DNA from: Woeseiaceae bacterium | Lineage (GTDB): Bacteria > Pseudomonadota > Gammaproteobacteria > Steroidobacterales > Woeseiaceae | Length of the DNA stretch: 64,000 nt | Assembly (NCBI GenBank): GCA_051007895.1 | Contig: JBPCYD010000336.1 | Span: forward strand, 1,194-65,193 | Reading direction: 5' to 3' | Part shown: one piece after another, positions 4,047-25,224 of the stretch | Layout: each line of letters opens with the position of its first letter | Numbering within the stretch: position 1 is the stretch's first letter | The notes under the pieces: generated by a model | What the model was told of the DNA's origin: nothing | What the model saw: only the letters and a program-made list of their open reading frames with translations | Database searches by the model: none | Translations under genes and position numbers: made by a program

Positions 4047-4071
4047 CCAGGGAACCACGAACCGACACCGG

Positions 4072-5346: not shown

Positions 5347-5550
5347 AGTGCAACTGCTCCTGTTCCGTGACCGCCTGTTCGATACCCGGAGAGTAGCATC
5401 GGCGTGCGTCGCTGCATCGAACCAATGGCGAAGCCTTTTTAAGGCGTATCGCTGTTGTCGACAATATTGCGATAAACTTGAGGATTGTGTAGCTTGCCAA
5501 GCTGTCGCGCACCTGGCAAATAGCGACCTGATAAAACCTTAAGGACCACA

Positions 5551-6732: not shown

Positions 6733-6784
6733 AAATCGGCCCGGTGATCCCCGGTTACGCGCTTTCCTGCCTGAGCGCTTTTCC

Positions 6785-8134: not shown

Positions 8135-8414
8135 TCAACCGCGCGCCAGATTCGTCTGATGCAGTAACCAGAGCCCGCAGCTGTTTGCGCCGACGTAGGT
8201 TTTTTGCTTCGGCTGTGCTGAAAGCCACTAAAATCAAGCGATTCAGCCTGCCGGCTCGAGCAGTCTGCGCTCGGTCTTTTCGAATTATCGTGTCATAATC
8301 GAAAAAAATAGCACCTGGGCCGCCCGTTGCGCGGCAAGTGCAATTTGCGCCTGGCTGTTGCCAGATCCAATCCTGAATACCATATCCACCTTGGTGGTCA
8401 ACGCCGGTCAAAGA

Positions 8415-9213: not shown

Positions 9214-10752
9214 ATGAAATCACCTGCCCGGGCTCGCCAGTTTTCACTATTTGCCATCGTTGGATTACTGCTGGTACTGGGTCTTGGGCAGTCCATTCAC
9301 AGACATTTTGTGTACGACGTTCCCTGGATTCCCGGCACCGAAAAATCGATCTGGTCAATCGAGGCCAGCGTCCAGTTCTTTGCTCGCGGTGATCCCGTCA
9401 CCGTTAACCTGCGTCGGCCGAAAGATCAGTCCGGCTTTGCGATTCTCGACGAGAACGGCGCATCGCCGGGATACGGCTTGAGCTTTGTCGATGCTGGCGG
9501 ACAGCCAACCGCACAGTGGACCGTGCGCCAGGCGGATGGGCAGCAGGTTCTCTATTATCGCGCCGAGGTCTTGCAGCGGGATGCCGGAGAATACGACGAC
9601 GAACCACCACCAGATATTCGTTCGCCGAGCTGGGAAGAACCGTATGCGACGGTGGTAGAGGCAGTACTCGACCAGGCAGTCAGCCTGTCCGCCGATCCGT
9701 TCTCCCTGACGCGTCAGCTGATCAGTCAGTTTCGTGCCAGCGATCGCGGGCAGAATGAGCAGCTCCTGCTGGACGTGGTTGGCGGTCAGAATCTGACAAA
9801 CCTGCTCGCCAACATGTTGCAAAGTCGCGGCATTCCGGCGGCCACGGTATACGGACTATTGCTTGAGGATGGGCGGCGGCGCCAGCGTCTCAGGCCGTTG
9901 CTGCGCGTCTGGTCGGAAGAACAGAACGAAGTTTTTCCGCTTGGCATTGAGACCGGCGAAGAGGACCTGCCCCTGTTACTGTGGCAACCCACACAGGGGT
10001 ATGTACTTGATGTAACCGGTGGAACAGGCTCCGAACTGCGCTTCTCGATGATCCGGTCGGAGCTAACCAACTACGGGCAATTGGCCGGCACGCTTGGCGA
10101 AGCTAACGACTGGCTCGGTTTCTCCATTCATTCGTTGCCAATCGAGGAGCAGGCTATGTTTAAAACCATCCTGCTCTTGCCCATCGGTGCACTGGTCGTG
10201 TGCCTGCTGCGAATTCTGGTCGGCTTGAAAACATCCGGCACCTTTATGCCGGTGCTGATCGCTCTCGCGTTTATCGAAACCAGCCTGACAACCGGCCTGG
10301 TTGGCTTCCTCCTCGTCGTCGCCGTCGGACTGATGATCAGGAGTTACATGTCACATCTGAATCTGTTGCTGGTCGCCAGGATATCCGCGGTGATCATCAC
10401 GGTGATTACCATCATTGCGTTATTCAGCGTATTCAGTTTCAGAGTCGGTCTCACCGAAGGACTAAAAATAACTTTCTTCCCGATGATCATTCTTTCCTGG
10501 ACAGTGGAACGTATGTCTATCCTGTGGGAAGAAGAAGGCTGGCGAGAGGTGGCCATCCAGGGTTTCGGAAGTCTTACCACGGCCGTTGCAGCGTACCTGG
10601 CAATGACCAGTCTGCTGGTGCGACATTTGACTTTTAATTTTATCGGACTTCAGTTCGTCGTTCTGGCACTGATCATGATGCTCGGCAGTTATACCGGGTA
10701 TCGGCTATTGGAACTGGTTCGTTTCAAGCCGCTGGCTGAGCAGAACGGGTAG
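9214..10752 (+). CDS. Inactive transglutaminase-like domain fused to a 7-TM module
   Basis: 512 aa: an N-terminal TM, a ~300-aa soluble domain, then about 7 TM helices. The only Cys in the whole protein lies in a TM helix (ALVVCLLRI), so no transglutaminase catalytic Cys is present. The position between the protease and the ATP-grasp gene matches the conserved triad. Confidence 0.7.
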   Translation: MKSPARARQFSLFAIVGLLLVLGLGQSIHRHFVYDVPWIPGTEKSIWSIEASVQFFARGDPVTVNLRRPKDQSGFAILDENGASPGYGLSFVDAGGQPTAQWTVRQADGQQVLYYRAEVLQRDAGEYDDEPPPDIRSPSWEEPYATVVEAVLDQAVSLSADPFSLTRQLISQFRASDRGQNEQLLLDVVGGQNLTNLLANMLQSRGIPAATVYGLLLEDGRRRQRLRPLLRVWSEEQNEVFPLGIETGEEDLPLLLWQPTQGYVLDVTGGTGSELRFSMIRSELTNYGQLAGTLGEANDWLGFSIHSLPIEEQAMFKTILLLPIGALVVCLLRILVGLKTSGTFMPVLIALAFIETSLTTGLVGFLLVVAVGLMIRSYMSHLNLLLVARISAVIITVITIIALFSVFSFRVGLTEGLKITFFPMIILSWTVERMSILWEEEGWREVAIQGFGSLTTAVAAYLAMTSLLVRHLTFNFIGLQFVVLALIMMLGSYTGYRLLELVRFKPLAEQNG

Positions 10753-10753
10753 C

Positions 10754-11701
10754 ATGATGTTTGTATCCCCCGGCCGATTACGCAAACTCGGTATTGTCGG
10801 AATGAACAATCGCAATATCAATCTGATCGGCGAATTGAATCCCCGACACCTTTATCCGCTGGTCGATAACAAGCTCAAGACCAAACTTCTTGCTGCGGAG
10901 AAAGGACTGGCGACGCCGGCGCTGATCGGCGCACTTCGCACGCAGCATGATGTCCAGGGTCTTGAGTCATTCCTGGAGCCTCACGATGGCTTTGCAATAA
11001 AGCCGGCGAAAGGAAGCGGTGGTAAAGGCATTTTGGTAATCGCTGCCCGCCGCGAAGAATTTTTCGTCAAGCCCAATGGACAGGAATTGCCTATCGATGA
11101 AATCCGTCGACATGCGTCAAATATCCTGTCCGGGCTCTTTAGCCTTGGCGGCACGCCGGATTTGGCAGTAGTTGAGGAACTGATAAAACCACATGCCGCC
11201 TATAAGAACCTCTCGGTCGAAGGCGTGCCTGATATCCGCGTAATCGTTTATCGCGGCTTCCCGATCATGGCCATGATGCGACTGTCGACCCGAGAATCGG
11301 ACGGCAAAGCGAATCTTCATCAGGGCGCTATCGGCGTCGGCCTGACAATTTCCAGCGGACGACCGGTCAATGCAACTCAATTCAACCGCCGTGTGGTGGA
11401 GCACCCGGACTCGGGTGCAGACTTGATGTCGATACAGATTTCGGACTGGCCGGATCTCCTCGAAATCGCTGCACGATCAGCCGACGTCACCGGTCTTGGC
11501 TATCTCGGTTCGGATATCGTCGTCGACCGTCGTTATGGCCCGCTACTCCTGGAGTTAAACGCCCGACCAGGACTGGCGATACAGTTAGCGAACAATTGCG
11601 GATTGTCGCCTCGGATTCGGGCCATCGACAACTTAACGCCCGCCTGTTTCCGCCAGGGCCCGAAAATGCGTGTCGATCGCGCGATAGAAATGTTCGATTA
11701 G
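10754..11701 (+). CDS. Alpha-L-glutamate ligase-like (RimK-related) ATP-grasp protein
   Basis: GIVGMNNRNINLI...YPLVDNKLKTK N-terminus and FAIKPAKGSGGKGILVI ATP-grasp P-loop-like segment, followed by LLELNARPGL. The start lies 1 nt after the upstream stop. Confidence 0.8.
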   Translation: MMFVSPGRLRKLGIVGMNNRNINLIGELNPRHLYPLVDNKLKTKLLAAEKGLATPALIGALRTQHDVQGLESFLEPHDGFAIKPAKGSGGKGILVIAARREEFFVKPNGQELPIDEIRRHASNILSGLFSLGGTPDLAVVEELIKPHAAYKNLSVEGVPDIRVIVYRGFPIMAMMRLSTRESDGKANLHQGAIGVGLTISSGRPVNATQFNRRVVEHPDSGADLMSIQISDWPDLLEIAARSADVTGLGYLGSDIVVDRRYGPLLLELNARPGLAIQLANNCGLSPRIRAIDNLTPACFRQGPKMRVDRAIEMFD

Positions 11702-11715
11702 CCTGACTACTGCAA

Positions 11716-13083
11716 ATGCTGCATCGATTGATAATCGTCGTCATCCGGATTGTAACCAACACTTTCTTTCGCCGGATCGATATTATCGGTACAGAAAACA
11801 TCCCGGCAGATGGCCCCGTTATATTTGCTGGAAATCACCCGAATGCGCTGATGGACGGCTGGCTGCTGACCGCTACCTGCGGTCGCTGGCCGCTACATTT
11901 CGTCGTCAATGCAAAGCTCTGGCAATACCGGGCCCTCGTACCACTCCTGAACGCCTCCGGTGCGGTGCCGGTCTTTCGTCGGGAAGAGCACGATGGCGAA
12001 GTGGATAACCGAAAGGCCTTCACGCAGCTCTATGACGTCATGGAGGCGGGAAACTGCATGGGTATTTTTCCGGAAGGAGTCAGCCACACCGAATCGAGAA
12101 TGGTCAAACTGAAGACGGGTGCCGCCCGGATCGCTCTAACTGTGACCGCCAGGGGCAAGTCGCGCGTCCGTATCGTTCCCTGTGGCCTGAACTACATGCA
12201 TCGCCATCGATTCAGGAGCCAGGTTCTGATCGAGTTTGGTCCGCCTATCGTTATTGACGAAAAGTGGGTCAAGCGTTTTCAATCGGACGAATTGACTGCC
12301 ATTAACAGCCTAACCGATGATCTTGCCTCCGCACTGGCAGGCGTCACTTTGAATGCACCTGACTGGCGCACGCTGCGCTTCATTCAAACGGCCAGGAGAC
12401 TCTATAAGCCATCGTCGGTGGTTCTCAGTCCAGCACAATACGTCGAACTGAATCGGCGGTTCCTGGACCAGTATGATCTGTCATTGAGCAATCAGGAATT
12501 GAGCGAGTTGCGGCATGAGCTTGAAGATTACCAGGCGCAACTGGACCTACTGGGACTAAAGGATTACCAGCTGCGCCAACCCGTAACGTTAGGCCATGCT
12601 TTTCGAAAAATCATCGGCCGCGCCATGTGGATGCTGGTGCTGTTGCCATTGGCGATTCCCGGGGCATTGCTGCATCTGCCAATCGGCTGGATTGCCGCAA
12701 CAGTAGGAGAGCGGTTCAGTTACGAGATGGATGATGTCGCGACGCTTAAAGTGTTCGCCACGATACTGCTACTGCCGCTTTTATATCTTGGGATCGCCAT
12801 CGGCGTTGGTATGACATTCGGTGTGTGGTGGGCGATCGCTGTTGTCATCGGGCTGGTGCTGAGTTTCACGGCGTCTGTCCGAATTATTGAAGCAGAAGCC
12901 GGGATCCTCGTTTCAATAATGTCGGTAGCGAGGCTCGCTCGCCTGGACGCGGAAGTTGCCAATCTGCGAGCGACCAGGGCGATGCTTGTCGAAAAAGTCA
13001 GGGCACTGGTCGATAAACATGTCGACCCGGATATGCCGCGAATGTTTACGGAAAAAGATTTCGGCCGGAAAACAGAAACCTGA
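11716..13083 (+). CDS. PlsC-type lysophospholipid/glycerol-phosphate acyltransferase with C-terminal TM extension
   Basis: HX4D motif NHPNALMD and FPEGVSH block. The C-terminal third contains 3-4 hydrophobic helices. Confidence 0.75.
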   Translation: MLHRLIIVVIRIVTNTFFRRIDIIGTENIPADGPVIFAGNHPNALMDGWLLTATCGRWPLHFVVNAKLWQYRALVPLLNASGAVPVFRREEHDGEVDNRKAFTQLYDVMEAGNCMGIFPEGVSHTESRMVKLKTGAARIALTVTARGKSRVRIVPCGLNYMHRHRFRSQVLIEFGPPIVIDEKWVKRFQSDELTAINSLTDDLASALAGVTLNAPDWRTLRFIQTARRLYKPSSVVLSPAQYVELNRRFLDQYDLSLSNQELSELRHELEDYQAQLDLLGLKDYQLRQPVTLGHAFRKIIGRAMWMLVLLPLAIPGALLHLPIGWIAATVGERFSYEMDDVATLKVFATILLLPLLYLGIAIGVGMTFGVWWAIAVVIGLVLSFTASVRIIEAEAGILVSIMSVARLARLDAEVANLRATRAMLVEKVRALVDKHVDPDMPRMFTEKDFGRKTET

Positions 13084-13232: not shown

Positions 13233-14252
13233 CTAGCTTGCCTTGCGCATGACGTTGCGTCCTTCGCGTTTGGCCTGATACAACGCGTCATCGGCCCTGG
13301 ACAGCCAGCTTTGTGCTGATTCGCTACCGCGGATTTCTGCGACGCCCAGTGAGATTGTGACTGCACTATTGGGTACCAATTCGTTCACTTCGACTAGCGT
13401 GCGAAGTTGTTCAGCAAGATGGCAGGCATCTCCCAGGCTCTGTCCGTCGGCAACAACAACGAATTCCTCTCCACCGATTCGGAACAGGCTATCGTTCAGT
13501 CTCGTTCTCAGATTGACGATGCCGACGACTTCACACAGAATCTGATCGCCGACTGCATGTCCGTGTATATCGTTCACCTTCTTGAAGTGATCCAGATCGA
13601 GGACAATAAGCGACGTTGGCAGGCCATTGCGCTCATAAGCATTAATCACTTTTGCCAACTTAACCTGTAGTGCGCGCCGATTTCCGGCGCCGGTCAGCGG
13701 ATCCCTCGTCGCAAGATTCAGCAGCTTTTCCTGTTGCCTGTTATTGATGATGGTGAAGGCGAACGTGAACGCAGTTGTAAGCAAAATCGTGACCGCTACG
13801 GTGCCGGCCACAAACGTCTCCAGGTTCTGGAAAATTACAGGCGTGATAAGCACATTGAAGGTTACCGTGAGAGTGATCGCTTCGAACGGCTTCAGCAAAT
13901 AGAAACAGGCCAGTACCACAGGGAACGCCCAGTAAACCTGCTGCACACCGCCCACGTACATCGTCATTAGCGCGCCGGCAACGGCGATAATTGCGATCGC
14001 AATGCTTGCTCCGCGAACCCGTCGTGTCTTATAGATATAGACGCCAAGCCCTACCAGGCCGACAACGATGACGGTATCAATCGCAGCGACCACCCAGTCG
14101 CCGTCCAGCCATCGCACAACGACGAATGGCGCAACACCCAGGGCCCCTGCGGCACTCAATACTAGCGGCAGGTAACCGGTAAGAGTCTCTCTTGAGGCCG
14201 GCACCTGGGTTATTTCGTGCCACGATTCTATAGCGGATTTATGTCTCGCCAC
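13233..14252 (-). CDS. Membrane-bound diguanylate cyclase (GGDEF)
   Basis: About 5-6 N-terminal TM helices, then DPLTGAGNRR, GGEEF active site and an RLND (RxxD) I-site 5 residues upstream. GTG start with AAGGA upstream. Confidence 0.85.
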   Translation of the reverse strand: MARHKSAIESWHEITQVPASRETLTGYLPLVLSAAGALGVAPFVVVRWLDGDWVVAAIDTVIVVGLVGLGVYIYKTRRVRGASIAIAIIAVAGALMTMYVGGVQQVYWAFPVVLACFYLLKPFEAITLTVTFNVLITPVIFQNLETFVAGTVAVTILLTTAFTFAFTIINNRQQEKLLNLATRDPLTGAGNRRALQVKLAKVINAYERNGLPTSLIVLDLDHFKKVNDIHGHAVGDQILCEVVGIVNLRTRLNDSLFRIGGEEFVVVADGQSLGDACHLAEQLRTLVEVNELVPNSAVTISLGVAEIRGSESAQSWLSRADDALYQAKREGRNVMRKAS

Positions 14253-14401: not shown

Positions 14402-15724
14402 TTATTCCGTACCCCACTTTGTCTCGACTTTAATGCCGATTTTCTGGAGAAACCCGGTCGGGAGAATTCCGCCGGCAGAGATAATGACGGCATCATTGCG
14501 AATCCGGGCCTGCTTTTCGCCCAGCGCAATGACGACTGAGTCGTCTCGAATTTCTTTCACATTTGAATTGAGAACAACCTGTACGCGCTTCGCGCGACTC
14601 ATCGATTCTATTTTTTCCCTGTTCTTTTGCTTCGCCCGGCTAAACGCACCGGAGCGGTAAGACAATGTGACAGTCGTCCCCTCTTCTTCTGCGATACTGG
14701 TCGCCGCCTCGAGAGCGCTGTCGCCTCCACCAACGACCAGCACATGTTGATTGCGGTACTGCTCCGGATCAATCAGGCGATAGGTCACTTTAGGCAGATC
14801 CTCGCCGGGCACCCCGAGTTGCCGCGGTGAGCCACGCCGTCCAATCGAAAGAAGGACAGCACGGGTGTCGTATTCGGCCCTGTTCGTGGTTACCCGGTAA
14901 CCGATCCGGCCTTCTGCTGGCACGATTTCGTCCACGCGCTCATCATAGTTGATTGCGATTCCGGTCTTCTTTTCCACGCCCTGCCAGAAGTCGATGAGAT
15001 CTTCTTTCTGTACTTCCTTGAATTTGGTTTTGCCGATGATGGGCAGTTCTGCAGGCTGTGTCATGACGAGCTTGCGGCGCGGAAAGTGAGCGACGGTTCC
15101 GCCCAGCTCCTCCTGCTCCACGGTAACGACCTTCAGGTTGTCGACCTTGGCCGCCAGCGTTGCTGAAAAGCCTGCGGGGCCGGCACCAACGATCAGCAGG
15201 TCCAGCTCGTTGCTGTGTCCCTCTGCAAGCAGCTGGCTAATGGACGCCATCGCCTGACGACCTTGCTCAATGGCGTTGCGAATTAGCCCCATGCCGCCTA
15301 ATTCGCCCGCAATAAAAATACCGGGCATGTCCGTTTCGAAATTCGGTTTGACGACGGGAAGATCGATACCGCGGGTAGCCGTACCGAATACAAGTGTAAT
15401 CGCGTTTACGGGACAAACGGTCTTGCAGGCACCATGGCCGATACAGTCTGAGGGCCCAATCAAACGGGCCTTTTTGCCAATCATCCCGAGCACGGGATGC
15501 GCATCCTGCTCGGGACAGGCCACCACGCAGGATTTGCAGCCAATGCAAATGGTCGGGTCGATTTCCGGGTGCAGGGTCGGCGGCTCAAGCATACCGGCTT
15601 CCGTTGCCGCCTTTAACGCCTCCAGGCTTTCCCGTTCCAGGCGATTATGACGACGGATATACCAGGCCACGATGGCCAGGATGGGCAAAACGTACAGGTA
15701 GGTTAGGGAGTCCGGATTAAACAT
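14402..15724 (-). CDS. Membrane-anchored 2x[4Fe-4S] ferredoxin domain fused to an FAD/NAD(P) pyridine nucleotide-disulfide oxidoreductase-like domain
   Basis: N-terminal TM helix (YLYVLPILAIVAWYI), cluster motifs CIGCKSCVVACP and CIGHGACKTVCP, dinucleotide folds VGAGPAG and VGGGDSA. The start is uncertain: ATG at 15724 versus TTG at 15811. Confidence 0.7.
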   Translation of the reverse strand: MFNPDSLTYLYVLPILAIVAWYIRRHNRLERESLEALKAATEAGMLEPPTLHPEIDPTICIGCKSCVVACPEQDAHPVLGMIGKKARLIGPSDCIGHGACKTVCPVNAITLVFGTATRGIDLPVVKPNFETDMPGIFIAGELGGMGLIRNAIEQGRQAMASISQLLAEGHSNELDLLIVGAGPAGFSATLAAKVDNLKVVTVEQEELGGTVAHFPRRKLVMTQPAELPIIGKTKFKEVQKEDLIDFWQGVEKKTGIAINYDERVDEIVPAEGRIGYRVTTNRAEYDTRAVLLSIGRRGSPRQLGVPGEDLPKVTYRLIDPEQYRNQHVLVVGGGDSALEAATSIAEEEGTTVTLSYRSGAFSRAKQKNREKIESMSRAKRVQVVLNSNVKEIRDDSVVIALGEKQARIRNDAVIISAGGILPTGFLQKIGIKVETKWGTE

Positions 15725-16089
15725 TTGTTTGCAGTAACGAGTCTTGAGGAAAGCATATCGCGGCCAAGAACAAAGCTCATGAAGCAGTTCACGCAACGGA
15801 AATTCTGACAACCCGCTACAGCGAGTCGACGTCTCGAACGCTCGCTAGCGGTGATTTTTTCTGCCTGTTTTTCGTTTCTCCGTGCGAATGATTCTCATTG
15901 CACCAAAAACTGTCGCCAGTGTGCGACACACATCTGATTTTATTAAGAATATCTGTGACACAGGGGAACCAAGACGAATGACAGAACGTGTATTTATACA
16001 AGGTACACGGACACGGCACCGGATGAGAGTTTCGTTGCCGTACCGCGTCAAGAAAAATCGTTGGTTTGTTTCAGATAAGGCTTGTGCAA

Positions 16090-16956
16090 ATGTCGATCAT
16101 GTTTTGGGGAATTGCGATTACGATGTTAGTTGTCGCGATAGGGGTGCTTGCAATACCCATGCGGGCGGGCAATGCCCGCCAGCCGATTATTGTCGTTATG
16201 CTGCTGGTGCCTGCGATTGCCGTTGGGCTTTATTCGAACATCGGCTCGCCGCAGGCCGCCTCGTTGGGCAGCGATGACAGGCAGGCCCAACCTGCAACGA
16301 GTGGCTCTGCCACAAACCGCGCAGCACAATCTCGTTCAGGACAATCTGTCGGCTCTGTCGCGAGCATGTTAGCGGGACTCGAAGGACGATTGGAACGCGA
16401 ACCGAACGATGCCGGAAGCTGGTTACTACTGGCAAAGTCATACCAGCATCTCAACCGGCTCGAAGATGCCGTCGCAGCCTACGAACGAGCGAGCGAGCTC
16501 GGAAAAAGTGACGTTGCCCTGGAAAAGTTGCTCGTCGAAGCCGGACAGGTAATCCAGCCTCCTGCAGATGATAGCCGCCCCGCGTTGCGTGGCCGGGTAT
16601 CGCTGTCGGCCGATGCCGATGAACTGGTCAGTCCTGATGACACCGTATTCATATTCGCAAAAGAATCTCGCGAACACCGGATGCCGGTCGTTGCTTTGCG
16701 CAGGCCCGCATCGGAATTGCCGCTTGATTTTATCCTGACCGACGACGACGCCATGGTCGCCGGCACGCGACTGGAGGATTACGAACAGCTCGTGATCACG
16801 GCGAAAATTTCACGATCTGGTATGGCGACAGACGCGGTCGATGGACTTGAATCATGGAGTGAAGCTGTTTCTCCGCGCGATCAACAGAAGATTGAACTCG
16901 TGATCACCGGAGGCGCCGCCGACGGTGCGCCAAATTCGGCAGACAACGATGAATGA
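16090..16956 (+). CDS. ccmI: CcmI/CycH-like c-type cytochrome biogenesis (apocytochrome chaperone) protein
   Basis: MSIMFWGIAITMLVVA... two N-terminal TM helices, a TPR segment (GSWLLLAKSYQHLNRLEDAVAAYERASELG) and a C-terminal block DTVFIFAKESREHRMPVVALRRPASELPLDFILTDDDAM...VITAKISRSG typical of CcmI. AAGG lies 9 nt upstream of the ATG at 16090. Confidence 0.7.
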   Translation: MSIMFWGIAITMLVVAIGVLAIPMRAGNARQPIIVVMLLVPAIAVGLYSNIGSPQAASLGSDDRQAQPATSGSATNRAAQSRSGQSVGSVASMLAGLEGRLEREPNDAGSWLLLAKSYQHLNRLEDAVAAYERASELGKSDVALEKLLVEAGQVIQPPADDSRPALRGRVSLSADADELVSPDDTVFIFAKESREHRMPVVALRRPASELPLDFILTDDDAMVAGTRLEDYEQLVITAKISRSGMATDAVDGLESWSEAVSPRDQQKIELVITGGAADGAPNSADNDE

Positions 16957-17857
16957 GGCGACTGCAGAGCGCGAATTTCCGCCCAACCCGCTGACGGGCC
17001 GGATCTTCGGCACGCGGGACAGCCGCCAGGGCAGCGCATTCTATGGCTACTCACTGACGACACTTGCAATCGGCATTGGCTGGTTGTTGCGCGACTATGG
17101 CCTGATCAATCCGGAGGAAGGTCTCGGGTACTGGCTCGGCATCATCGGCGGATCGATGATGCTGGTGCTACTCCTCTATCCCCTTCGGAAAAGGATAAAA
17201 GCGCTGCGTTTTCTTGGCGGCACGACGCGATGGTTCAGTGCGCACATGATACTCGGCATTGTGGGCCCCGTGCTCGTCCTGTATCACAGCAATTTCCAGC
17301 TTGGCTCGTTCAATAGCAGGGTTGCGCTGTACTGCATGTTGCTCGTTGCTGGCAGCGGGGTTGTAGGACGACACATCTATGCACACATTCATCGGGGTCT
17401 CTACGGGCAAAAAATCTCGCTGTCTGAACTGCGCAATGATCTAAATGACTCCCTGGAAAACAACCAAGGCCTCGCGACACTCCTGCCGGAGCTGACGGCG
17501 CGACTGAGCGTGCTGACGGCCGAGGTCCAGGGCGACAGCATCACAGGAGCGATGAGCACTCGCGCAAGCGTCATGTGGACCCTGAAGCAGTATTTCGTGT
17601 GGATATCGCTGCAATACACGGTTCATCGGGAGCTGAACGACCAGGCGGCAAGCTCTCCCGCTATCGCGAATGACCTGCCGCGACTCAAACGCACGAGCTT
17701 TGCCTATATACGAAATTTTGTTCGACTTACTGGGCGAGTAGCCCAGTTCACGCTGTACGAGAGACTTTTTGCGCTGTGGCACATCCTGCACATGCCGTTC
17801 TTTTTCATGATGGTCATTTCAGCCCTGATACACGTCCTGGCTGTGCATATGTACTGA
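16949..17857 (+). CDS. His-rich 5-TM inner-membrane protein (possible b-heme/quinone-linked module), family not recognised
   Basis: Four N-terminal TM helices, a ~110-aa soluble insert and one C-terminal TM. His residues sit within or at helix ends (SAHMILGIVGPVLVLYH, GRHIYAHIH, LWHILHMPFFFMMVISALIHVLAVH). The ATG at 16949 overlaps the ccmI stop by 8 nt. Confidence 0.6.
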   Translation: MNEATAEREFPPNPLTGRIFGTRDSRQGSAFYGYSLTTLAIGIGWLLRDYGLINPEEGLGYWLGIIGGSMMLVLLLYPLRKRIKALRFLGGTTRWFSAHMILGIVGPVLVLYHSNFQLGSFNSRVALYCMLLVAGSGVVGRHIYAHIHRGLYGQKISLSELRNDLNDSLENNQGLATLLPELTARLSVLTAEVQGDSITGAMSTRASVMWTLKQYFVWISLQYTVHRELNDQAASSPAIANDLPRLKRTSFAYIRNFVRLTGRVAQFTLYERLFALWHILHMPFFFMMVISALIHVLAVHMY

Positions 17858-17879: not shown

Positions 17880-19448
17880 ATGACGGAGACAAGACGAGGA
17901 CTTTTTGGATTACTAGCGATGCTCGCAACAATCACAAGTTTGCCTGCGACTGCTCAGACCATTGAGTCGCTAGTCATGCCGGACGAAGTTATCGCGGGGC
18001 ATGCAGACATCGAGACCGAATGCTCCTTGTGTCACAAGGCGTTCAATCGATCCGAACAGCGTGCTCTGTGCCTCGATTGCCACGAGTTGGTCGCTATCGA
18101 TATAGAGCTGAATCTCGGCTATCACGGCAGAGCCAGTGACGCTCGTGAAGATGAGTGCGCGTCCTGCCACACCGATCACGAAGGGCGAGATGCAGAGATT
18201 GTCATTCTCGACGAAGAAGCCTTTGACCACGACTTCACGGATTTCGAACTGTTGGGTGATCACGCTGAGGCCGAGTGTATCGATTGCCATGTGCAGGAAG
18301 ACAAGCATCGTGACGCTGCAACCGAATGCGGCACCTGTCACGCCGATGACAAGCCACATGCTGAAGATCCCGCGGAGTTATGCACCGACTGCCACAACGA
18401 GTCCGGGTGGGACGATGTTCATTTCGACCATGACACAACGGATTACGAGCTTATCGGGAAGCATGCGGAGACCGCCTGCATTGACTGCCATGAAGTCGAG
18501 AAATTTGCCGACACGCCCGACAACTGTTTCGCGTGTCACGCCGAAGACGATGAACATGATGGACGCAGCGGCGAGCAGTGCGAAAATTGCCACAACCCCA
18601 GCGCGTGGAACGATTCGAGTTTCGACCATGAGCGCGACACGGACTTTTCACTGGTGGGACGTCACGCTGAATTGAGCTGTGATGATTGCCACAGTGACGA
18701 TCCCTTCAGTGATGAGATGGAAATGGCCTGTGTCGGTTGTCACCTGGAAGATGACGAACATGATGGTCACAACGGGACCGCCTGCGCCGACTGCCATTCC
18801 AATGACGCATGGACTGACAGCCAGTTTGACCACGCACGAGACGCTGACTATGCGCTAAACGGCTCGCACGCCGGGGTGGTCTGTGTTGACTGCCATATTG
18901 AACCTGTCTTCGAAACTAAATTGGAGCAAGACTGCGTGTCCTGTCACCGGGACGACGATCCACACAATGGTTCGCAGGGAAACGCCTGCGCCGATTGCCA
19001 CAATGAAACACAGTGGGAAGACGTTCCGTTCTTCGACCACGACCTGACCCGATTTCCGCTGCTCGGCGAGCACGGCAACATTGAATGCGAAGATTGCCAC
19101 GAGACGAAAGTATTCTCGGAAACCGAATCTGAGTGTCTTAGCTGTCACGTTGAGGACGATCCGCACGATGGCGTTTACACCGTTGAGTGCGAATCGTGTC
19201 ATAACCCTGTCGCCTGGGATCTGTGGCTCTTCGACCACAACACGAACACCGATTTCCTGCTTGGCGGCGCGCACCTGGATGTCGAATGCAGCGACTGCCA
19301 CAGAAGCTCCCTCCAATCCATGCAAAAGATCGGTGCTCGCTGCATCGATTGTCATCGAGCGGATGACATCCACGATGGAGAGTTCGGGCCAGACTGTGGG
19401 CGCTGTCATAGCGACACAACGTTTGAAGAAGTGAGGTCATTGCAATGA
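17880..19448 (+). CDS. 21-heme c-type cytochrome made of 7 tandem triheme (c7/c3-like) modules
   Basis: I counted 21 CXXCH motifs in 522 aa. There is an N-terminal signal peptide (cleavage near ATA-QT). FDH anchors at aa 115, 182, 248, 316, 385 and 451 give a ~67-aa module period, and each module carries at least 3 extra His. Confidence 0.95.
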   Translation: MTETRRGLFGLLAMLATITSLPATAQTIESLVMPDEVIAGHADIETECSLCHKAFNRSEQRALCLDCHELVAIDIELNLGYHGRASDAREDECASCHTDHEGRDAEIVILDEEAFDHDFTDFELLGDHAEAECIDCHVQEDKHRDAATECGTCHADDKPHAEDPAELCTDCHNESGWDDVHFDHDTTDYELIGKHAETACIDCHEVEKFADTPDNCFACHAEDDEHDGRSGEQCENCHNPSAWNDSSFDHERDTDFSLVGRHAELSCDDCHSDDPFSDEMEMACVGCHLEDDEHDGHNGTACADCHSNDAWTDSQFDHARDADYALNGSHAGVVCVDCHIEPVFETKLEQDCVSCHRDDDPHNGSQGNACADCHNETQWEDVPFFDHDLTRFPLLGEHGNIECEDCHETKVFSETESECLSCHVEDDPHDGVYTVECESCHNPVAWDLWLFDHNTNTDFLLGGAHLDVECSDCHRSSLQSMQKIGARCIDCHRADDIHDGEFGPDCGRCHSDTTFEEVRSLQ

Positions 19449-22156
19449 CTTTTGCAGAAATAGGTTTAGCGAGAGCGTCAGCGCGAGCCGAACATTTTGG
19501 TGTCGTCCTGCTGATTGCTGCACTGATTGTCACGGTATTCCAGGCACCGGCACACGCACAACAATCATTCGACCACTTCAGTACCGGATTCATTCTGGAC
19601 GGAGCACATACCAACGTCACCTGTGAAGGATGTCACGTCAGTGCGGCGTTTGGCCCGACAGACCAGAGTTGTACCAGCTGCCATTCTCAGGGCGGACTGG
19701 TGCGGGCATCCGCAAAACCAGTCAATCATGTATTGACGTCCGGGGAGTGCTCCGATTGCCACGTCACTGCGAACTGGAGTGCCATAGCCTACATGGATCA
19801 TTCTTCGATCACCGGAAGCTGCGCCACCTGTCACAACGGGATCCAGTCGACCGGGAAGACCCTGGATCACGTATCGTCAGGCGACCAGTGCGATGACTGC
19901 CATACGACCACGGCCTGGCTACCTGCAGTATTTGATCATAGCGGCGTTGTCGGCAACTGCGTGAGCTGCCATAACGGACTCAGTGCGACTGGAAAACACC
20001 AGGCACATATTGCCAGTGGCAATACCTGTGAAAACTGTCACACGACCATCGGCTGGGTGCCGGCCAACTTCGATCATGTGAACGTCTTTGGCAACTGCGT
20101 CAGCTGCCACAATGGCACAGACGCCACCGGCAAGAATCCGACGCACATCCAGTCAACCAATGTCTGCGAGGATTGCCATAGCCCAACAGTATGGATTCCG
20201 CCAATTATGGTCGACCATACGCAGGTTATAGGCACCTGCGGCTCATGTCATGACGGCACAACGGCGACCGGCAAGCACCCGACCCATATCGCCAGCAGCG
20301 ACAGCTGCGATGATTGCCACAGCACGATTGGCTGGGTGCCTGTCAATTTCGATCACGCAAACATCACAGACAACTGCTTTAGCTGCCACAACGGGTCGGA
20401 AGCCATAGGCAAACACCCGCTTCACGTACAGACAACGAACGTCTGTGAAGACTGTCACAGCACAAATGTCTTCTCGCCGGTAACGACTGTTGACCATACC
20501 CAGGTCATAGGTAGCTGCGCCTCATGTCACAACGGCACAGACGCGATCGGCAAGAGCGCCGCTCACGTACGAACAACGGACGTTTGCGAAGACTGTCATA
20601 CGACGGTCGCATTCGTACCCGTAACCATTGTCGATCATACCCAGGTGCTGGGGAGCTGCGGCTCCTGCCACGACGGGGTTACCGCGACGGGCAAAAACCA
20701 GGGGCATATCGCCAGCGGCAACAACTGCGACGACTGCCACAGCACGGTCGGCTGGTTGCCGGCCAACTTCGACCACGTGAATATCATGGGAAATTGTATC
20801 AGCTGCCATAACGGTGTTGATGCAACCGGCAAGGGACCCGCACATATCCAAACTACGGATGTATGCGAAGACTGTCATTCAACGAACGTATTTACGCCGG
20901 CAATGATCGTTGATCACACGCAGGTGCTCGGCACGTGCAGCTCTTGCCACAACGGTACGACGGCGACCGGCAAGAACCAGGGGCATATCGCCAGCGGCGA
21001 TACCTGCGACGATTGTCACAGCACGTTTGGCTGGCTACCGGCAAATTTCAATCACCTGAATATCATGGGCAATTGCATAAGTTGCCACAACGGCACCGAG
21101 GCAACCGGCAAGAACGTCGGGCACATCAATACATCTGACGTCTGCGAAGACTGTCATGCGACCAATGTATTTGCGCCGGTGATGACGGTTGATCATACGC
21201 AGGTGCTCGGCACGTGCAGCTCATGCCACGACGGCCTCACCGCCGTTGGCAAACATCCAACGCATATTCCCAGCGGCAATACCTGCGACGACTGCCACAC
21301 AACCGCAGGCTGGCTGCCCGCGACGTTCGACCACGCAACCATTACGGGTGGCTGCGTCAATTGCCACAACGGCGCTGACGCAACCGGTAAGAATCCAACG
21401 CATCCATTGACCACAAATGTCTGCGAGGACTGCCACTCCACTAACGTGTTCGTGCCCGTTATTGTGGTTGACCACACCCAGGTGCTGGGCGCGTGCGGAT
21501 CGTGTCACGATGGGGTTACGGCGACGGGCAAGTCGCCGAATCACATTACGAGCGGCAACAACTGCGACGACTGCCACAGCACAGTTGGCTGGCTGCCGGC
21601 CAACTTCGACCACGTCAATATTGCGGGTAACTGCTTCAGCTGCCATAACGGCACGGACGCAACCGGCAAAAATCCGACGCACGTTCAAACAACCAACGTT
21701 TGTGAAGACTGCCACACGACTAATGTGTTCGCGCCGGTATTCACGGTTGACCACACCCAGGTCCTGGGATCTTGCTCGACCTGTCACAACGGCGTATCGG
21801 CAGCGGGCCAGAATGCCGGTCACTTTAACACCAACGTCGAATGTGACGTCTGCCATACGTCAAATGGATGGACACCTGCGGACTATCGACATGCGACCCT
21901 GCCGTATGAACCGCAGGACCATCGCGGCAACCTGCAGTGTACCGAATGTCATACGCAGAATTCGGAGTTGATCCCCTGGCAGAACGCTGCGTTCCAACCT
22001 GACTGCGCGGGCTGTCATGCGAATGACTACCGACCCAACAAACACGAAGCTGCAAACGGTGGCAATGAGACTGTAAGTCAGAATCGCGATTGCGCGGGTG
22101 CGTGTCATCAAAAGAACAGTTTCCACAGAATTTCGGACTCGGGTTGGGACAGATAG
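19445..22156 (+). CDS. 36-heme c-type cytochrome: 3 N-terminal hemes, 15 tandem diheme (paired-CXXCH) modules, 3 C-terminal hemes
   Basis: I counted 36 CXXCH motifs in 903 aa. Signal peptide ...APAHA-QQ. The repeated unit is (F/V)DH-x7-C-x2-CH-(N/D)G-x3-(T/I)GK-x3-H-x6-C-x-(D/N)-CH. The start is an ATGA overlap with the upstream stop. Confidence 0.95.
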   Translation: MTFAEIGLARASARAEHFGVVLLIAALIVTVFQAPAHAQQSFDHFSTGFILDGAHTNVTCEGCHVSAAFGPTDQSCTSCHSQGGLVRASAKPVNHVLTSGECSDCHVTANWSAIAYMDHSSITGSCATCHNGIQSTGKTLDHVSSGDQCDDCHTTTAWLPAVFDHSGVVGNCVSCHNGLSATGKHQAHIASGNTCENCHTTIGWVPANFDHVNVFGNCVSCHNGTDATGKNPTHIQSTNVCEDCHSPTVWIPPIMVDHTQVIGTCGSCHDGTTATGKHPTHIASSDSCDDCHSTIGWVPVNFDHANITDNCFSCHNGSEAIGKHPLHVQTTNVCEDCHSTNVFSPVTTVDHTQVIGSCASCHNGTDAIGKSAAHVRTTDVCEDCHTTVAFVPVTIVDHTQVLGSCGSCHDGVTATGKNQGHIASGNNCDDCHSTVGWLPANFDHVNIMGNCISCHNGVDATGKGPAHIQTTDVCEDCHSTNVFTPAMIVDHTQVLGTCSSCHNGTTATGKNQGHIASGDTCDDCHSTFGWLPANFNHLNIMGNCISCHNGTEATGKNVGHINTSDVCEDCHATNVFAPVMTVDHTQVLGTCSSCHDGLTAVGKHPTHIPSGNTCDDCHTTAGWLPATFDHATITGGCVNCHNGADATGKNPTHPLTTNVCEDCHSTNVFVPVIVVDHTQVLGACGSCHDGVTATGKSPNHITSGNNCDDCHSTVGWLPANFDHVNIAGNCFSCHNGTDATGKNPTHVQTTNVCEDCHTTNVFAPVFTVDHTQVLGSCSTCHNGVSAAGQNAGHFNTNVECDVCHTSNGWTPADYRHATLPYEPQDHRGNLQCTECHTQNSELIPWQNAAFQPDCAGCHANDYRPNKHEAANGGNETVSQNRDCAGACHQKNSFHRISDSGWDR
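19793..21874 (+). repeat. In-frame tandem coding repeat with 138-141-nt half-unit and 279-nt full unit (diheme and tetraheme modules)
   Basis: VDHTQV anchor codons start at 20210, 20489, 20630, 20909, 21188, 21467 and 21746, giving spacings of 279, 141, 279, 279, 279 and 279. The first 47 nt of the units at 20909 and 21188 differ at 3 positions. An identical 32-nt run occurs at 20714 and 21551. Confidence 0.9.
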
Positions 22157-22162
22157 TCATCA

Positions 22163-24619
22163 ATGAGTGCCTGCTTCCAAAAACCGATAGCACTGCTTTC
22201 GTTAGTCCTTCTTTCAGCAGGCACATTTGCCGCCCCTGGCTTTATTGTTGGTTCGAAGATTAGGGGAGGCACGAATGTTGCCGAGATTACGATTCAATTC
22301 GCCTGTGCGGTTGAGTATGTCGATCATTTTCCGGCCAACGAATCCGATCGAGTAAGAATTCAAATCGAATCGACGACGTTGTGTAACGGCGTCCCGCCGA
22401 CTGTTGCCTACGCGCGCGAGCAACATCGGCCCGCAGATGCGGAGATAGCAAAGCTGCTTGAAATCACTTACGACGGCGAATCCGAGACCGACCAGGCATT
22501 AACACTGGCTTTTAGCGAAACGGTCAGCTTTGGAATCGAACAGAACGGCACGTCGAGCGACATGGTTATTCGCGTTTATCCAAACAAAGAAACGCAAGTG
22601 AAACAGCCGATTCCCCGATCTACCTCCGTGCGCACCGTCCAGGACACCGCTGAACCGTCATCCTATGTGATTAACCTGTCATCCAGTCAGATTCCACATG
22701 CACCGTCCGAAATGCAGGCCGTTTCTGTTTCAGCCGAACTCAAGGTTTTCGAATCTGAGGTCTTGCTTGCAGGTTCTACCTGGTATCGGTTGCGAGTCGG
22801 AACTTTCGAAAGCACCGGGGATGCACAAACCGAGCTTCGCAAACTACGTGCTCAGTATCCCGCGGCCTGGATTGACCGCGCACCGGAGTCGACGAACGGT
22901 GAAATCGGCAATGAACTAGCGGAAAGCGAACCCTTGCTCAATGACGCCGGTGACGTCGCAGCGGCCTTCGCGACGATGGGGCTTGATCAGATCGACCAAC
23001 TGATGGTGGACGCTCGATTGGCAATGGTGGCAGGTGAGACGTCCCGGGCTATACAAATTTACACCAAGGTTTTGCGAGGCCCATCCAGCGACCGGCACGC
23101 GCAGGCACAGGAATACCTGGCACTGGCGCGGGAAAAGAACGGACAAAAGGCGCATGCCAGGTCTGAATACCAGCGCTATCTGCAGCTTTACCCGGACAAT
23201 GAAGGTACCGCCCGGGTGCAGCAACGCCTCGCAGCATTGCTGGCCAGCGAGCGTCAGGTGGTGTCCGCCCCGGCAAGCACGCCGGGGACCGCAACAACCG
23301 GCAGAAGATCTGTTCGCAACCCGAGCGCTTGGCGGTTTCAGACGTTCTTTTCCCAGTACTATCGACGCGACGTCAATCAGCCCAACGAACAGGCTGACAT
23401 TGTCAGTCAGTCGGCACTCTATTCCGACATCAATCTGGACATCAGGCGGCGCGGCCAGAGATTCGATTTCAGCAGCAGGCTTTCTGCCGGCTATCGCAAT
23501 GATTTTCTCGACGAAGATCAGGGCTCGGGCGACCAGGCACGGGTTTCATATGCATACGCTGATCTTGCCGACGCCGAAACGGGACTGCGGGGAAGAATAG
23601 GTCGACAATCCAGAAACACCGGTGGCATCCTGGGCCGATTCGATGGTCTGAACATTGGCTACCAGGCAAGTGAACGCATACTGGTCAACGCAGTTGCGGG
23701 AATTCCGGTCAATTCAGCGTCAGACAGTATCGACTCTGAACGCACTTTCCAGGGATTGAGCGTCAACTACGGTCCGCTGCTCGACAACCTCGAGTTGGGC
23801 GCGTATTTCATTAGCCAGAGTATCGAGGGCATTGAAGATAGAACCGCGACCGGCGCCGAGTTTCGCTACTTTGGCGAGAACCACAACCTCTGGGGTCTCG
23901 TTGATTACGATACTTCGTACAGCGAACTTGGCAGTGCATTCCTGCAGGGCAGCTGGCGAGTGACGCCACGTCTCAGTGTACACGGCTCGGTTGACCGGCG
24001 GCACACCCCGTACCTGAGTTCGCGTAACGCGATGATTGGGCAACCAGTGCAAACATTCGCCGAGATGCTCGTGCTGTACTCCGAGGCCGAGATTCATCAG
24101 TTCAGCATTGACCGCTCGCCGCTCAGCGAGTCGTACACGATCGGATTGTCGCAGTCGTTCTCGCCCAGGCTGCAAATCAATTTTGATGCCAATCAAACGA
24201 CGATCGACGCTACGCCGGAATCGGGGGGTGTGTTGGCGATTCCGGAATCGACGTTTCGGTATGTTGCGACCACGCTGGTAGCAAGCAGCCTGATCACGGA
24301 AGGCGATGTACTGATGGTTTCTCTCCGGGCGTCAGATTCAAATACGACGAAGGTCTCCTCAATGACCCTGGATACTCGTTTCCCTCTGGGCAGATCCTGG
24401 CGTGTCAATCCGCGCCTACGTGTTGATCGACGACAAATTCTGTCCGATTCGTCCATTGAGTGGTTGTATACGCCCGGCCTGCGAATACAGATTCGTAACA
24501 GCCAGCGGTACCGCATCGATCTTGAGGCAGGCAAGCGTTTCTCGGAGCGCGACTCCCCAATACTGAATCTGGATCGCGAATCGTATTTCGTCAACCTCGG
24601 CTACCAGGTGTTTTTTTGA
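22163..24619 (+). CDS. Large outer-membrane protein: signal peptide, N-terminal beta-rich domain, SPOR-like domain, TPR region, C-terminal beta-barrel
   Basis: Signal peptide LLSLVLLSAGTFAAP. SPOR-like YVINLSS...WYRLRVGTFESTGDAQTELRKLRAQYPAAWI (about 22658-22876). TPR-like helices at about 22985-23236. About 430 aa of alternating amphipathic strands end in the OMP beta-signal NLGYQVFF. The start lies 6 nt after the cytochrome stop. Confidence 0.75.
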   Translation: MSACFQKPIALLSLVLLSAGTFAAPGFIVGSKIRGGTNVAEITIQFACAVEYVDHFPANESDRVRIQIESTTLCNGVPPTVAYAREQHRPADAEIAKLLEITYDGESETDQALTLAFSETVSFGIEQNGTSSDMVIRVYPNKETQVKQPIPRSTSVRTVQDTAEPSSYVINLSSSQIPHAPSEMQAVSVSAELKVFESEVLLAGSTWYRLRVGTFESTGDAQTELRKLRAQYPAAWIDRAPESTNGEIGNELAESEPLLNDAGDVAAAFATMGLDQIDQLMVDARLAMVAGETSRAIQIYTKVLRGPSSDRHAQAQEYLALAREKNGQKAHARSEYQRYLQLYPDNEGTARVQQRLAALLASERQVVSAPASTPGTATTGRRSVRNPSAWRFQTFFSQYYRRDVNQPNEQADIVSQSALYSDINLDIRRRGQRFDFSSRLSAGYRNDFLDEDQGSGDQARVSYAYADLADAETGLRGRIGRQSRNTGGILGRFDGLNIGYQASERILVNAVAGIPVNSASDSIDSERTFQGLSVNYGPLLDNLELGAYFISQSIEGIEDRTATGAEFRYFGENHNLWGLVDYDTSYSELGSAFLQGSWRVTPRLSVHGSVDRRHTPYLSSRNAMIGQPVQTFAEMLVLYSEAEIHQFSIDRSPLSESYTIGLSQSFSPRLQINFDANQTTIDATPESGGVLAIPESTFRYVATTLVASSLITEGDVLMVSLRASDSNTTKVSSMTLDTRFPLGRSWRVNPRLRVDRRQILSDSSIEWLYTPGLRIQIRNSQRYRIDLEAGKRFSERDSPILNLDRESYFVNLGYQVFF

Positions 24620-25224
24620 TGATCATAAATGCCAAGATATTCAAGCGATCCGGCATGTCCGGGCTTATCGGGCTAGTCGTCGTTTGCATCCTGGCTGGAT
24701 GCGCGGCATCCGCTCCTGAGATCAGGAACAAACTGGATCCGTCAACCGGGGTAACGATTACCTACAGCAGCGTGCCGCTGATCATGTATCGGGAAGACCC
24801 GGCGCAGGCGGCGTTCGCACGAAATTACGTACACGTCGGCCCGATCCAGGTAAATCGAAGTGGCAACTATCAGTATTTTCTGTGGCTTGGCGTATGGAAC
24901 AATATGCAGGATCTCAATTCAACGTCGCATCGGGACGGACTCGGCTCAATCGTTATTTTCGCCGATGGCGAACCGCTTTCGCTCGAGATAAGCGGCTGGA
25001 CACCGGACGCCATCGGCACGAGTGAGCCCGTTTACCTGAAGCCGGTTGCGTCATCCGCCGACGCCTACTACCGGGTTACTGCGGACCAGATCAGACTAAT
25101 TGCAGAGGCCACAGATATTCGCTTACGAACCTCGGGTGCAAAACCTCGGGAATTCGAGCCATGGGACGGTCAATTGGCCGCGCGAAACGATTTGCAGGAA
25201 TTTTTGCGGCGGACTTTATTCTAG
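24619..25224 (+). CDS. Small lipoprotein of unknown function (last gene of the cytochrome operon)
   Basis: MIINAKIFKRSGMSGLIGLVVVCILAGC lipobox. The start overlaps the stop of the outer-membrane gene (TGATG). No family recognised. Confidence 0.6.
   Translation: MIINAKIFKRSGMSGLIGLVVVCILAGCAASAPEIRNKLDPSTGVTITYSSVPLIMYREDPAQAAFARNYVHVGPIQVNRSGNYQYFLWLGVWNNMQDLNSTSHRDGLGSIVIFADGEPLSLEISGWTPDAIGTSEPVYLKPVASSADAYYRVTADQIRLIAEATDIRLRTSGAKPREFEPWDGQLAARNDLQEFLRRTLF

Follow-up and report, generated by a model that had tools for sequence, protein, structure and literature searches.

An outer membrane protein of a predicted PCC3 porin-cytochrome cluster in Woeseiaceae joins peptidoglycan-binding-type and tetratricopeptide repeat modules to a 22-strand beta-barrel

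A gene for an outer membrane protein (OMP) was analyzed in a 64,000-nucleotide stretch of DNA from a Woeseiaceae bacterium (GenBank assembly GCA_051007895.1, contig JBPCYD010000336.1, positions 1,194 to 65,193; the whole stretch is referred to as the window). By its sequence hallmarks the locus is a PCC3 porin-cytochrome cluster, and the OMP is its "porin." We somewhat favor a reading in which the OMP is the outer membrane subunit of a PCC3-type conduit, where it would act as a peptidoglycan-tethered sheath for a multiheme rod and possibly also as an export channel. This reading draws on four observations: (i) the domain architecture of the protein; (ii) the conservation of this architecture among its homologs; (iii) the strict linkage of the gene to those of multiheme cytochromes (MHCs); and (iv) the conservation of the barrel face that lines the lumen. 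The OMP thus appears to belong to a known, predicted kind of protein whose periplasmic architecture has apparently gone undescribed. No paper linking PCC3 with SPOR or tetratricopeptide was found in the searchable literature; the supplement of Hoover et al. 2023 shows AlphaFold2 models with no text on porin domains (PMC10734462), and papers on Woeseiaceae refer to multiheme cytochromes in general terms only. Public annotations already call relatives of the OMP "SPOR domain-containing" or "TPR repeat protein."

The OMP gene is strictly linked to a PCC3 cluster

PCC3 was proposed by He et al. in 2017, with the motifs WX3HX13H and SGXXG as hallmarks of the inner membrane protein (IMP) of PCC3 and PCC4, and with median heme numbers of 21 for the periplasmic MHC and 34 for the second MHC (PMC5566968). 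All four defining PCC3 genes, including that of the IMP, were found in the window. The assignment to PCC3, which the initial annotation had not made, follows from the IMP motifs, the 21 and 36 hemes of the two cytochromes and the spacing of about 25 residues per heme, all of which match the published definition (PMC5566968). Among the best 120 to 150 matches listed per OMP search, none was named for Sideroxydans ES-1 or Leptothrix SP-6, the sources of the reference PCC3 porins. The IMP carries WX3HX13H at residues 103 and 285 and SGXXG at residue 144 and has no Pfam match, while the first cytochrome has 21 CXXCH motifs at 24.9 residues per heme. Compared with the published clusters (PMC5566968; Hoover et al. 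2023, PMC10734462), the content and order of the four genes, the IMP motifs and the 21 hemes are alike; the second cytochrome has 36 hemes here versus the published median of 34. This clade also differs from the four published components in adding a downstream lipoprotein and a divergently transcribed iron-sulfur (FeS)/FAD oxidoreductase.

Gene linkage was assessed in 70 OMP-bearing loci taken from species-representative genomes, nearly all of them Woeseiaceae or unclassified gammaproteobacterial metagenome-assembled genomes (MAGs). In addition to the OMP, which was matched in all 70, matches were found to the lipoprotein (66 loci), the large MHC (62), the 21-heme MHC (59), the IMP (47), and the CcmI-like factor and the FeS/FAD oxidoreductase (45 each). 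Where the contig was long enough, the genes were ordered FeS/FAD oxidoreductase, CcmI, IMP, 21-heme MHC, large MHC, OMP and lipoprotein, with the lipoprotein gene directly downstream of the OMP gene in 66 of the 70 loci. The tryptophan dioxygenase and FMO genes that follow in the window were rarely kept (2 and 4 loci, respectively); thus, the conserved module ends after the lipoprotein. Of the 47 loci in which the first cytochrome could be evaluated, 42 have 21 hemes in this protein, and the five exceptions appear to be truncated open reading frames (ORFs); the downstream cytochrome ranged from 16 to 53 hemes among the evaluable loci.

Three distant loci with OMPs of 33 to 36% identity were also analyzed, from a Gammaproteobacteria MAG, the gill symbiont of Solemya pervernicosa and an ENA contig. 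The first cytochrome had exactly 21 hemes in all three and was followed by cytochromes of 26 hemes, of 24 and 70 hemes (the Solemya symbiont), or of 7 and 21 hemes, which extends the range of the downstream cytochrome to 16 to 70. The lipoprotein was not found in these three loci (L071, L072, and L074), and the FeS/FAD oxidoreductase was present in two of them. In L071 and L074 the oxidoreductase was 59% identical, versus 43 to 44% for the cytochromes, 38 to 43% for the IMP and 34 to 36% for the OMP; this conservation suggests that the conduit is linked to pyridine nucleotides or ferredoxin. Linkage of the gene family to exopolysaccharide loci, which the initial annotation had considered, was not borne out, as no exopolysaccharide genes were seen in the 70 loci or the three distant ones and multiheme cytochromes were present in every locus examined. 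As a separate observation, the Solemya symbiont locus (L072, positions 3897-8981, CP054491) encodes a 1,694-residue cytochrome with 70 heme motifs directly upstream of the OMP homolog.

Domain architecture of the OMP

The OMP reading frame opens with ATG at position 22163 and closes with a TGA stop codon at 24617-24619. A word-indexed search returned 701 homologs, of which the best 120 listed were nearly all full-length, and an exhaustive profile search returned 2,859 clusters at 50% identity, of which 1,102 had E <= 1e-30. Based on these numbers the gene is not a chance ORF. No match was obtained by tblastn against a plasmid collection. An AlphaFold2 model was built from 48 homologs, with strands and helices assigned by DSSP, and had a mean pLDDT of 80 overall and of 85 to 94 within domains. 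The model consists of four folded units, between which disordered linkers lie at residues 143-165, 243-266 and 365-385. The four regions outlined in the initial annotation were essentially right, and their boundaries agree with the model within a few residues (about 35-140 versus 28-139, 166-238 versus 167-240, 275-358 versus 265-362, and the last 430 or so residues versus 389-817).

To follow the modules in the family, hidden Markov models (sub-HMMs) were made from parts of the OMP family alignment and run on 160 distant relatives. The full series of N-domain, SPOR, tetratricopeptide repeat (TPR) and barrel was found in 78 of these representatives, N-domain, TPR and barrel in 26, SPOR, TPR and barrel in 19, and TPR and barrel in 13, while 19 had two to four SPOR copies. 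On this sequence evidence, the TPR module and the barrel are the invariant core of the family and the distal modules are shuffled.

The SPOR assignment, proposed as "SPOR-like" in the initial annotation, is supported at the level of both profile and fold. PF05036 matched the OMP at 27.5 bits (cut-off 21), covering model positions 35-74 of 76, and matched 47 of the 48 family members; furthermore, the family profile aligned over the whole domain to the solved SPOR domain of DamX (2lfv). The modeled topology is b-a-b-b-a-b, with strands at residues 167-175, 195-202, 205-215 and 236-240 and helices at 181-185 and 218-228. Asn171, which is invariant in the close family, aligns with Gln351 of DamX, the equivalent of RlpA Gln270 and FtsN Gln251. 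This glutamine was reported as the sole highly conserved glycan-contacting residue in the structural study of RlpA (PMC6895207). In the wider family, with 367 SPOR instances, this position is Asn in 317 and Gln in 21, and the asparagine retains the amide group on a shorter side chain. Ser174, Trp207 and Arg209/Arg211 fill the other binding-face positions in the OMP, and these remaining positions are kept in 88 to 96% of the 367 instances. This conservation indicates that the binding face is under selection with a family-specific change of Gln to Asn; the SPOR domain is a putative peptidoglycan-binding module. Known SPOR proteins are all described as serving cell division or morphogenesis (PMC6895207). 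The OMP domain resembles those of FtsN, DamX, DedD and RlpA in its Pfam match, its RNP-like fold and the conserved residues of its beta-sheet face, but differs in being fused to a barrel, in its electron transfer operon, in its 0 to 4 copies and in having Asn for Gln. Copy number is thus highly variable in the family. Examples with two to four tandem SPOR domains before the TPR-barrel core are P0229 (1090 residues), P0160, P0164, P0172, P0128 and P0129.

The N-terminal domain is AMIN-like by fold and not by sequence, with the fold similarity at a borderline level in model comparisons. A separate model of residues 25-145 (pLDDT 92.8, pTM 0.86) was compared with the PDB, and its best matches were AmiC (4bin) and PilQ (4aqz and 4av2), with 3jc8 at rank 7; all of these contain AMIN domains. 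The E-values for the AMIN-containing structures were 2e-3 to 9e-3 and the TM-scores 0.51 to 0.59, and the match to the B2 domain of PilQ (4aqz) had TM-scores of 0.59/0.53 and a root mean square deviation (RMSD) of 4.0 A. Pfam AMIN (PF11741) was not matched by the full OMP at E <= 1 or by 21 N-domain sequences at E <= 10. The earlier suggestion of an AMIN-type domain has borderline support from the fold, where AmiC and PilQ are the nearest structures, and none from the sequence, where similarity was undetectable. In two of the distant loci a gene directly upstream of that of a shorter OMP encodes the N-domain on its own, as a secreted protein of 163 to 168 residues (L071, 8498-9004; L074, 8493-8984; E = 1e-22 and 6e-17). 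Based on this pattern of fusion and fission, the N-domain is an autonomous module that works with the barrel. AMIN domains of PilQ bind peptidoglycan and bring a trans-envelope machine to the sites of division, and AMIN, SPOR and LysM have been listed as motifs that bind denuded peptidoglycan (PMC5285504); a 2008 catalogue includes AMIN domains fused to outer membrane transporters, fused to TPR repeats, and on their own (PMC2572700). Like the OMP, PilQ secretins are outer membrane channels that serve a trans-envelope machine and bear, on flexible linkers, N-terminal peptidoglycan-binding modules whose number varies (PMC5285504, PMC2572700). They differ in that the OMP is a monomeric 22-strand barrel and not a multimeric secretin, and in that it combines the AMIN-like domain with SPOR and TPR modules.

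Between the SPOR domain and the barrel, five to six helices are modeled as helical hairpins. The TPR call of the initial annotation narrowly missed the Pfam cut-offs in this protein (TPR_14 at 23.3 versus 23.5 bits; TPR_16 at 23.8 versus 32.7 bits) and was consistent across the family, in which (i) sub-threshold matches recur in 20 to 37 of 48 relatives; (ii) the family profile matched the TPR domain of CpoB (E = 9e-6); and (iii) the TPR sub-HMM matched all but three fragmentary sequences of the 160 distant relatives.

Barrel, lumen and comparison with known systems

The C-terminal barrel anticipated in the initial annotation was recovered in the model; the barrel spans residues 389-817 and ends with NLGYQVFF and its usual terminal Phe. 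It has 22 strands, more than the 16 or fewer that had been considered as an alternative. The strands are amphipathic: of 139 residues turned to the lipid, 63 are aliphatic and 28 aromatic, and of 141 turned to the lumen, 27 are Arg/Lys, 18 Asp/Glu and 59 small polar. Invariant strand residues are concentrated toward the lumen (48, about 18 of them Arg) versus the lipid (17). The periplasmic turns are 2 to 7 residues long and the extracellular loops 2 to 14, with the exception of L7, a helical and conserved loop of 39 residues in which Pro616, Leu618, Ser619, Gly626, Gln627, Phe632, Glu643, Asp650 and Arg651 are invariant. L7 may narrow the lumen or touch a cytochrome. For a 22-strand barrel the C-alpha radius was estimated at about 20 A, versus about 23.5 A for one of 26 strands; strand number and sequence, and not model coordinates, were the basis for the estimates of pore size and of where L7 lies. 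Foldseek against the PDB returned generic barrels only (AlgE, Occ porins, FimD/PapC, PelB) with TM-scores <= 0.5, RMSD >= 8 A and 7 to 13% identity. A TonB-dependent receptor, a class that also has 22-strand barrels, was rejected, as neither Pfam nor NCBIfam gave a match and PqqU was only a generic Foldseek match at rank 45.

A close parallel among known systems is MtrB, a barrel encoded beside multiheme cytochromes and the proposed insulator of a trans-membrane heme wire (PMC7198977). MtrA, which measures about 80 x 30 x 35 A, is trapped in the MtrAB complex by long surface loops and is in contact with 22 of the 26 strands of MtrB (PMC7198977). The OMP differs from MtrB in having 22 versus 26 strands, very short loops versus loops of about 45 A that close the exit, and a large periplasmic extension with peptidoglycan-binding and TPR modules that MtrB lacks; its partner cytochromes carry 21 and 36 hemes versus 10 and 10. 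Membership in the MtrB/PioB family was likewise rejected, based on the lack of a sequence match, the absence from the Foldseek top 50, and the 22 strands combined with 360 periplasmic residues.

A second comparison concerns the size of PCC3 porins. Using PRED-TMBB, He et al. counted 22 strands for the Leptothrix porin, 40 for that of the Riftia symbiont and "up to 42" overall, and took the high counts as a sign of a very large pore (PMC5566968). In the published view the whole OMP is barrel, whereas the present model gives the barrel 22 strands and assigns the first 385 residues to periplasmic AMIN-like, SPOR and TPR modules. This suggests that the high published counts come from periplasmic modules scored as strands, and the 22-strand reading, drawn from a structural model, would correct the view that the barrel is a giant one with about 40 strands.

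The initial annotation had also likened the protein to BcsC and PgaA. Exporters of the BcsC, PgaA and PelB type have long TPR arrays and 16-strand barrels (14 in Slam) and are encoded in polysaccharide or lipoprotein-export operons. The shared theme, a periplasmic TPR module fused N-terminally to an outer membrane barrel as in BcsC, PgaA, PelB and Slam, was upheld; the closer likeness was not, as the OMP has about 2.5 TPRs instead of a long array, 22 strands instead of 16 and linkage to cytochromes only.

Proposed role and alternatives

In the mechanism that we infer, including the cytochrome that occupies the barrel, the binding of peptidoglycan, the partner of the TPR module and the direction of electron flow, Sec would export the OMP and BAM would insert its C-terminal 430 residues as a 22-strand barrel. 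The arginine-rich lumen would then sheathe part of an acidic, rod-like multiheme cytochrome as MtrB does MtrA, such that the heme chain crosses the outer membrane. The 21-heme protein would suit this role: in its mature form it has a pI of 4.3 and a net side-chain charge of -102 (127 Asp + Glu versus 25 Lys + Arg), and the lumen arginines would therefore complement the rod. Outward from the barrel the modules are ordered TPR, SPOR and AMIN-like on linkers of 21, 24 and 23 residues, an order in which a docking module would lie at the mouth on the periplasmic side and the peptidoglycan-binding-type modules could reach the wall. Thus, the TPR module on its 21-residue linker could be a docking platform for a cytochrome or for the AMIN-like module, while the SPOR and AMIN-like modules, on flexible linkers of 24 and 23 residues, would bind the glycan strands. 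Such binding would fix the barrel laterally, in alignment with the opening of the cell wall through which the 21-heme rod of fixed length passes to reach the di-heme inner membrane protein. A fixed heme number implies a fixed geometry between the two membranes, for which registration with the wall would be useful. The idea of the initial annotation that a peptidoglycan-anchored, TPR-scaffolded barrel holds or threads a heme rod would fit the Arg-rich lumen, the acidic 21-heme partner and the short loops.

Several points weigh against this assignment. The OMP barrel is narrower than MtrB, and its lumen, in which the fit of a cytochrome is presumed, may be occupied by L7. MtrB was not among the top 50 Foldseek matches to the OMP model, and no sequence similarity to MtrB/PioB was detected by Pfam, NCBIfam or a PDB sequence profile search. 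An arginine-lined lumen would be equally suited to the export of an anionic polymer. With regard to the tether, the canonical SPOR glutamine is replaced by Asn in this family, the AMIN assignment is one of borderline fold similarity without HMM support, and some relatives appear to lack SPOR and/or the N-domain in the sub-HMM scan, which implies that these modules are not essential for the core function. Finally, PCC3 itself is a bioinformatic proposal whose function was still untested in the 2025 literature.

Of the alternatives, the one that survives best is an export or assembly channel that threads the holo form of the "extracellular" cytochrome outward, as an usher, Slam or a two-partner secretion system does; we consider it unlikely but well worth weighing. 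The TPR module would then be a substrate receptor and the peptidoglycan-binding modules a fixed platform, and the protein may afterward stay as an anchor, which is compatible with a sheath. The conserved cluster has no type II secretion genes, yet one of its cytochromes is predicted to be extracellular (PMC5566968). This extracellular site of the 36-heme protein is a prediction only, and a type II system encoded elsewhere in the genome could serve as it does for MtrC. The layout of TPR and barrel is that of known exporters, one family member matches the TPR_Slam model, and the FimD/PapC ushers had the highest query-normalized TM-scores among the barrel matches (TMq 0.30); however, neither an energy source nor a chaperone partner is evident. 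The extracellular loops of 2 to 14 residues are unlike the long MtrB loops that trap MtrA, whose insertion has been called "stalled excretion" (PMC7198977). With surface loops this minimal a rod could protrude or pass through, and this alternative stays alive for that reason. Counter to it, the lumen is highly conserved, which suits the invariant 21-heme protein better than a partner that varies from 16 to 70 hemes.

An improbable alternative is that the OMP is an envelope tether like OmpA/Pal or a plain diffusion channel, for example for Fe(II), with no cytochrome inside and with electron exchange taking place in the periplasm. Two peptidoglycan-binding-type modules plus a barrel would suit a tether, L7 could be a porin-like constriction, and the failure to match MtrB by sequence or within the top 50 folds points in the same direction. 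Set against this are the strict association with the genes of two giant cytochromes, which overlap or nearly abut, over the 70 loci and the three distant ones, and a lumen-face conservation with about 18 invariant arginines that is excessive for a general pore; moreover, with a substrate that enters by diffusion, it is not obvious what a 36-heme rod would be for.

An exopolysaccharide exporter of the BcsC/PgaA/PelB/AlgE type that merely adjoins cytochrome genes was rejected as close to refuted, since the TPR and barrel layout, the arginine-rich lumen (a feature of AlgE as well) and the presence of AlgE and PelB among the Foldseek matches are outweighed by the lack of any conserved glycosyltransferase, synthase or polymer-modifying gene nearby in the 70 and three loci, the generic nature of the fold similarity noted above, the absence of exporter family matches in Pfam and NCBIfam, and the 2.5 or so TPRs and 22 strands in place of a long array and 16 to 18 strands.

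A more speculative extension of the favored conduit, which we regard as doubtful, is that PCC3 conduits are built into division sites as fixed trans-envelope machines, becoming polar and wall-locked, with a barrel that threads out and then holds the giant extracellular cytochrome. The AMIN and SPOR classes would recognize denuded septal peptidoglycan and recruit the barrel to the nascent septum as in PilQ. The wall is rebuilt at the septum, such that a rigid 21-heme rod too wide for ordinary peptidoglycan pores could be assembled through it, and SPOR copy number (0 to 4) could be tuned to the geometry of the envelope.

PCC3 is widespread, as this OMP family by itself comprises 2,859 clusters at 50% identity. 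The OMP family occurs in the abundant Woeseiaceae of marine sediments and in chemosynthetic symbionts, and published PCC3 clusters occur in iron oxidizers. Published carriers include marine gammaproteobacteria and chemosynthetic symbionts (PMC5566968; PMC10734462). The clusters hold some of the largest multiheme cytochromes that are known, and the architecture found here offers a concrete model for how a rod of about 20 nm could be held across the periplasm and cell wall. The OMP would also be an uncommon case of a SPOR protein outside cell division and morphogenesis (roles as given in PMC6895207). Isolated SPOR and AMIN-like domains, N-terminal truncations and localization fusions provide simple experimental handles on PCC3.

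Neighboring genes and features of the window

The positions of the OMP, its modules and the other genes of the cluster are collected in Table 1.

Table 1. Features of the PCC3 cluster, given as positions in the window
Feature	Positions	Strand	Basis
FeS/FAD oxidoreductase, membrane-anchored, 2x[4Fe-4S] + FAD/NAD(P), divergently transcribed	14402..15811	-	Pfam
CcmI/CycH-like cytochrome c maturation factor	16066..16956	+	Pfam Ig_CycH, 83 bits
PCC3 IMP, 310 aa, two WX3HX13H + SGXXG	16925..17857	+	Motifs
21-heme cytochrome, PCC3 "periplasmic" MHC	17880..19448	+	Heme motifs
36-heme cytochrome, PCC3 "extracellular" MHC, 35 CXXCH + 1 CX3CH	19445..22156	+	Heme motifs
OMP of the PCC3 cluster, 818 aa: signal peptide, AMIN-like, SPOR, TPR, 22-strand barrel	22163..24619	+	ORF translation, AlphaFold2 model, homologs
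Predicted signal peptide, residues 1-24, cleavage between TFA and AP, no lipobox	22163..22234	+	Read from sequence; N-terminal helix 6-21 in model
AMIN-like beta-sandwich, residues 28-139, invariant Cys48 + Cys74	22244..22579	+	Domain model, fold matches
SPOR domain, residues 167-240	22661..22882	+	PF05036, model topology, DamX alignment
TPR-like helical module, residues 265-362, about 2.5 repeats	22955..23248	+	Sub-threshold Pfam, family profile, model
C-terminal beta-barrel, 22 strands, residues 389-818, ends YQVFF	23327..24616	+	DSSP of model, amphipathicity
Loop L7, residues 615-653, sole long extracellular loop, 39 aa, helical, conserved	24005..24121	+	
Conserved lipoprotein, about 200 aa, lipobox LAGC	24619..25224	+	Sequence; no family match

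The forward-strand genes of the cluster are tightly packed, with gaps between successive genes of -32, 22, -4, 6 and -4 nucleotides: the CcmI/CycH-like gene overlaps the IMP gene by 32 nucleotides, the OMP gene begins 6 nucleotides downstream of the 36-heme gene, and the ATG of the lipoprotein gene overlaps the OMP stop codon (TGATG). A scan of the cluster for promoters and terminators found nothing above the shuffled background. The presence of a CcmI/CycH-like factor within the cluster suggests dedicated help in loading the 57 hemes. The DmsE/MtrA decaheme model matched the 36-heme protein at 150 bits in six stretches, which is below the cut-off, and the 21-heme protein at 35 bits. The lipoprotein had no match in Pfam, NCBIfam or the PDB profile search and, by analogy with LptE or PelC, may be a partner of the barrel. 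Farther upstream, an unrelated set of genes on the forward strand (9214-13083) encodes three proteins, namely a fusion of a seven-transmembrane protein with an inactive transglutaminase, an ATP-grasp enzyme associated with sugar transfer, and an acyltransferase, and a GGDEF diguanylate cyclase gene (13233-14252, reverse strand) adjoins the cluster.

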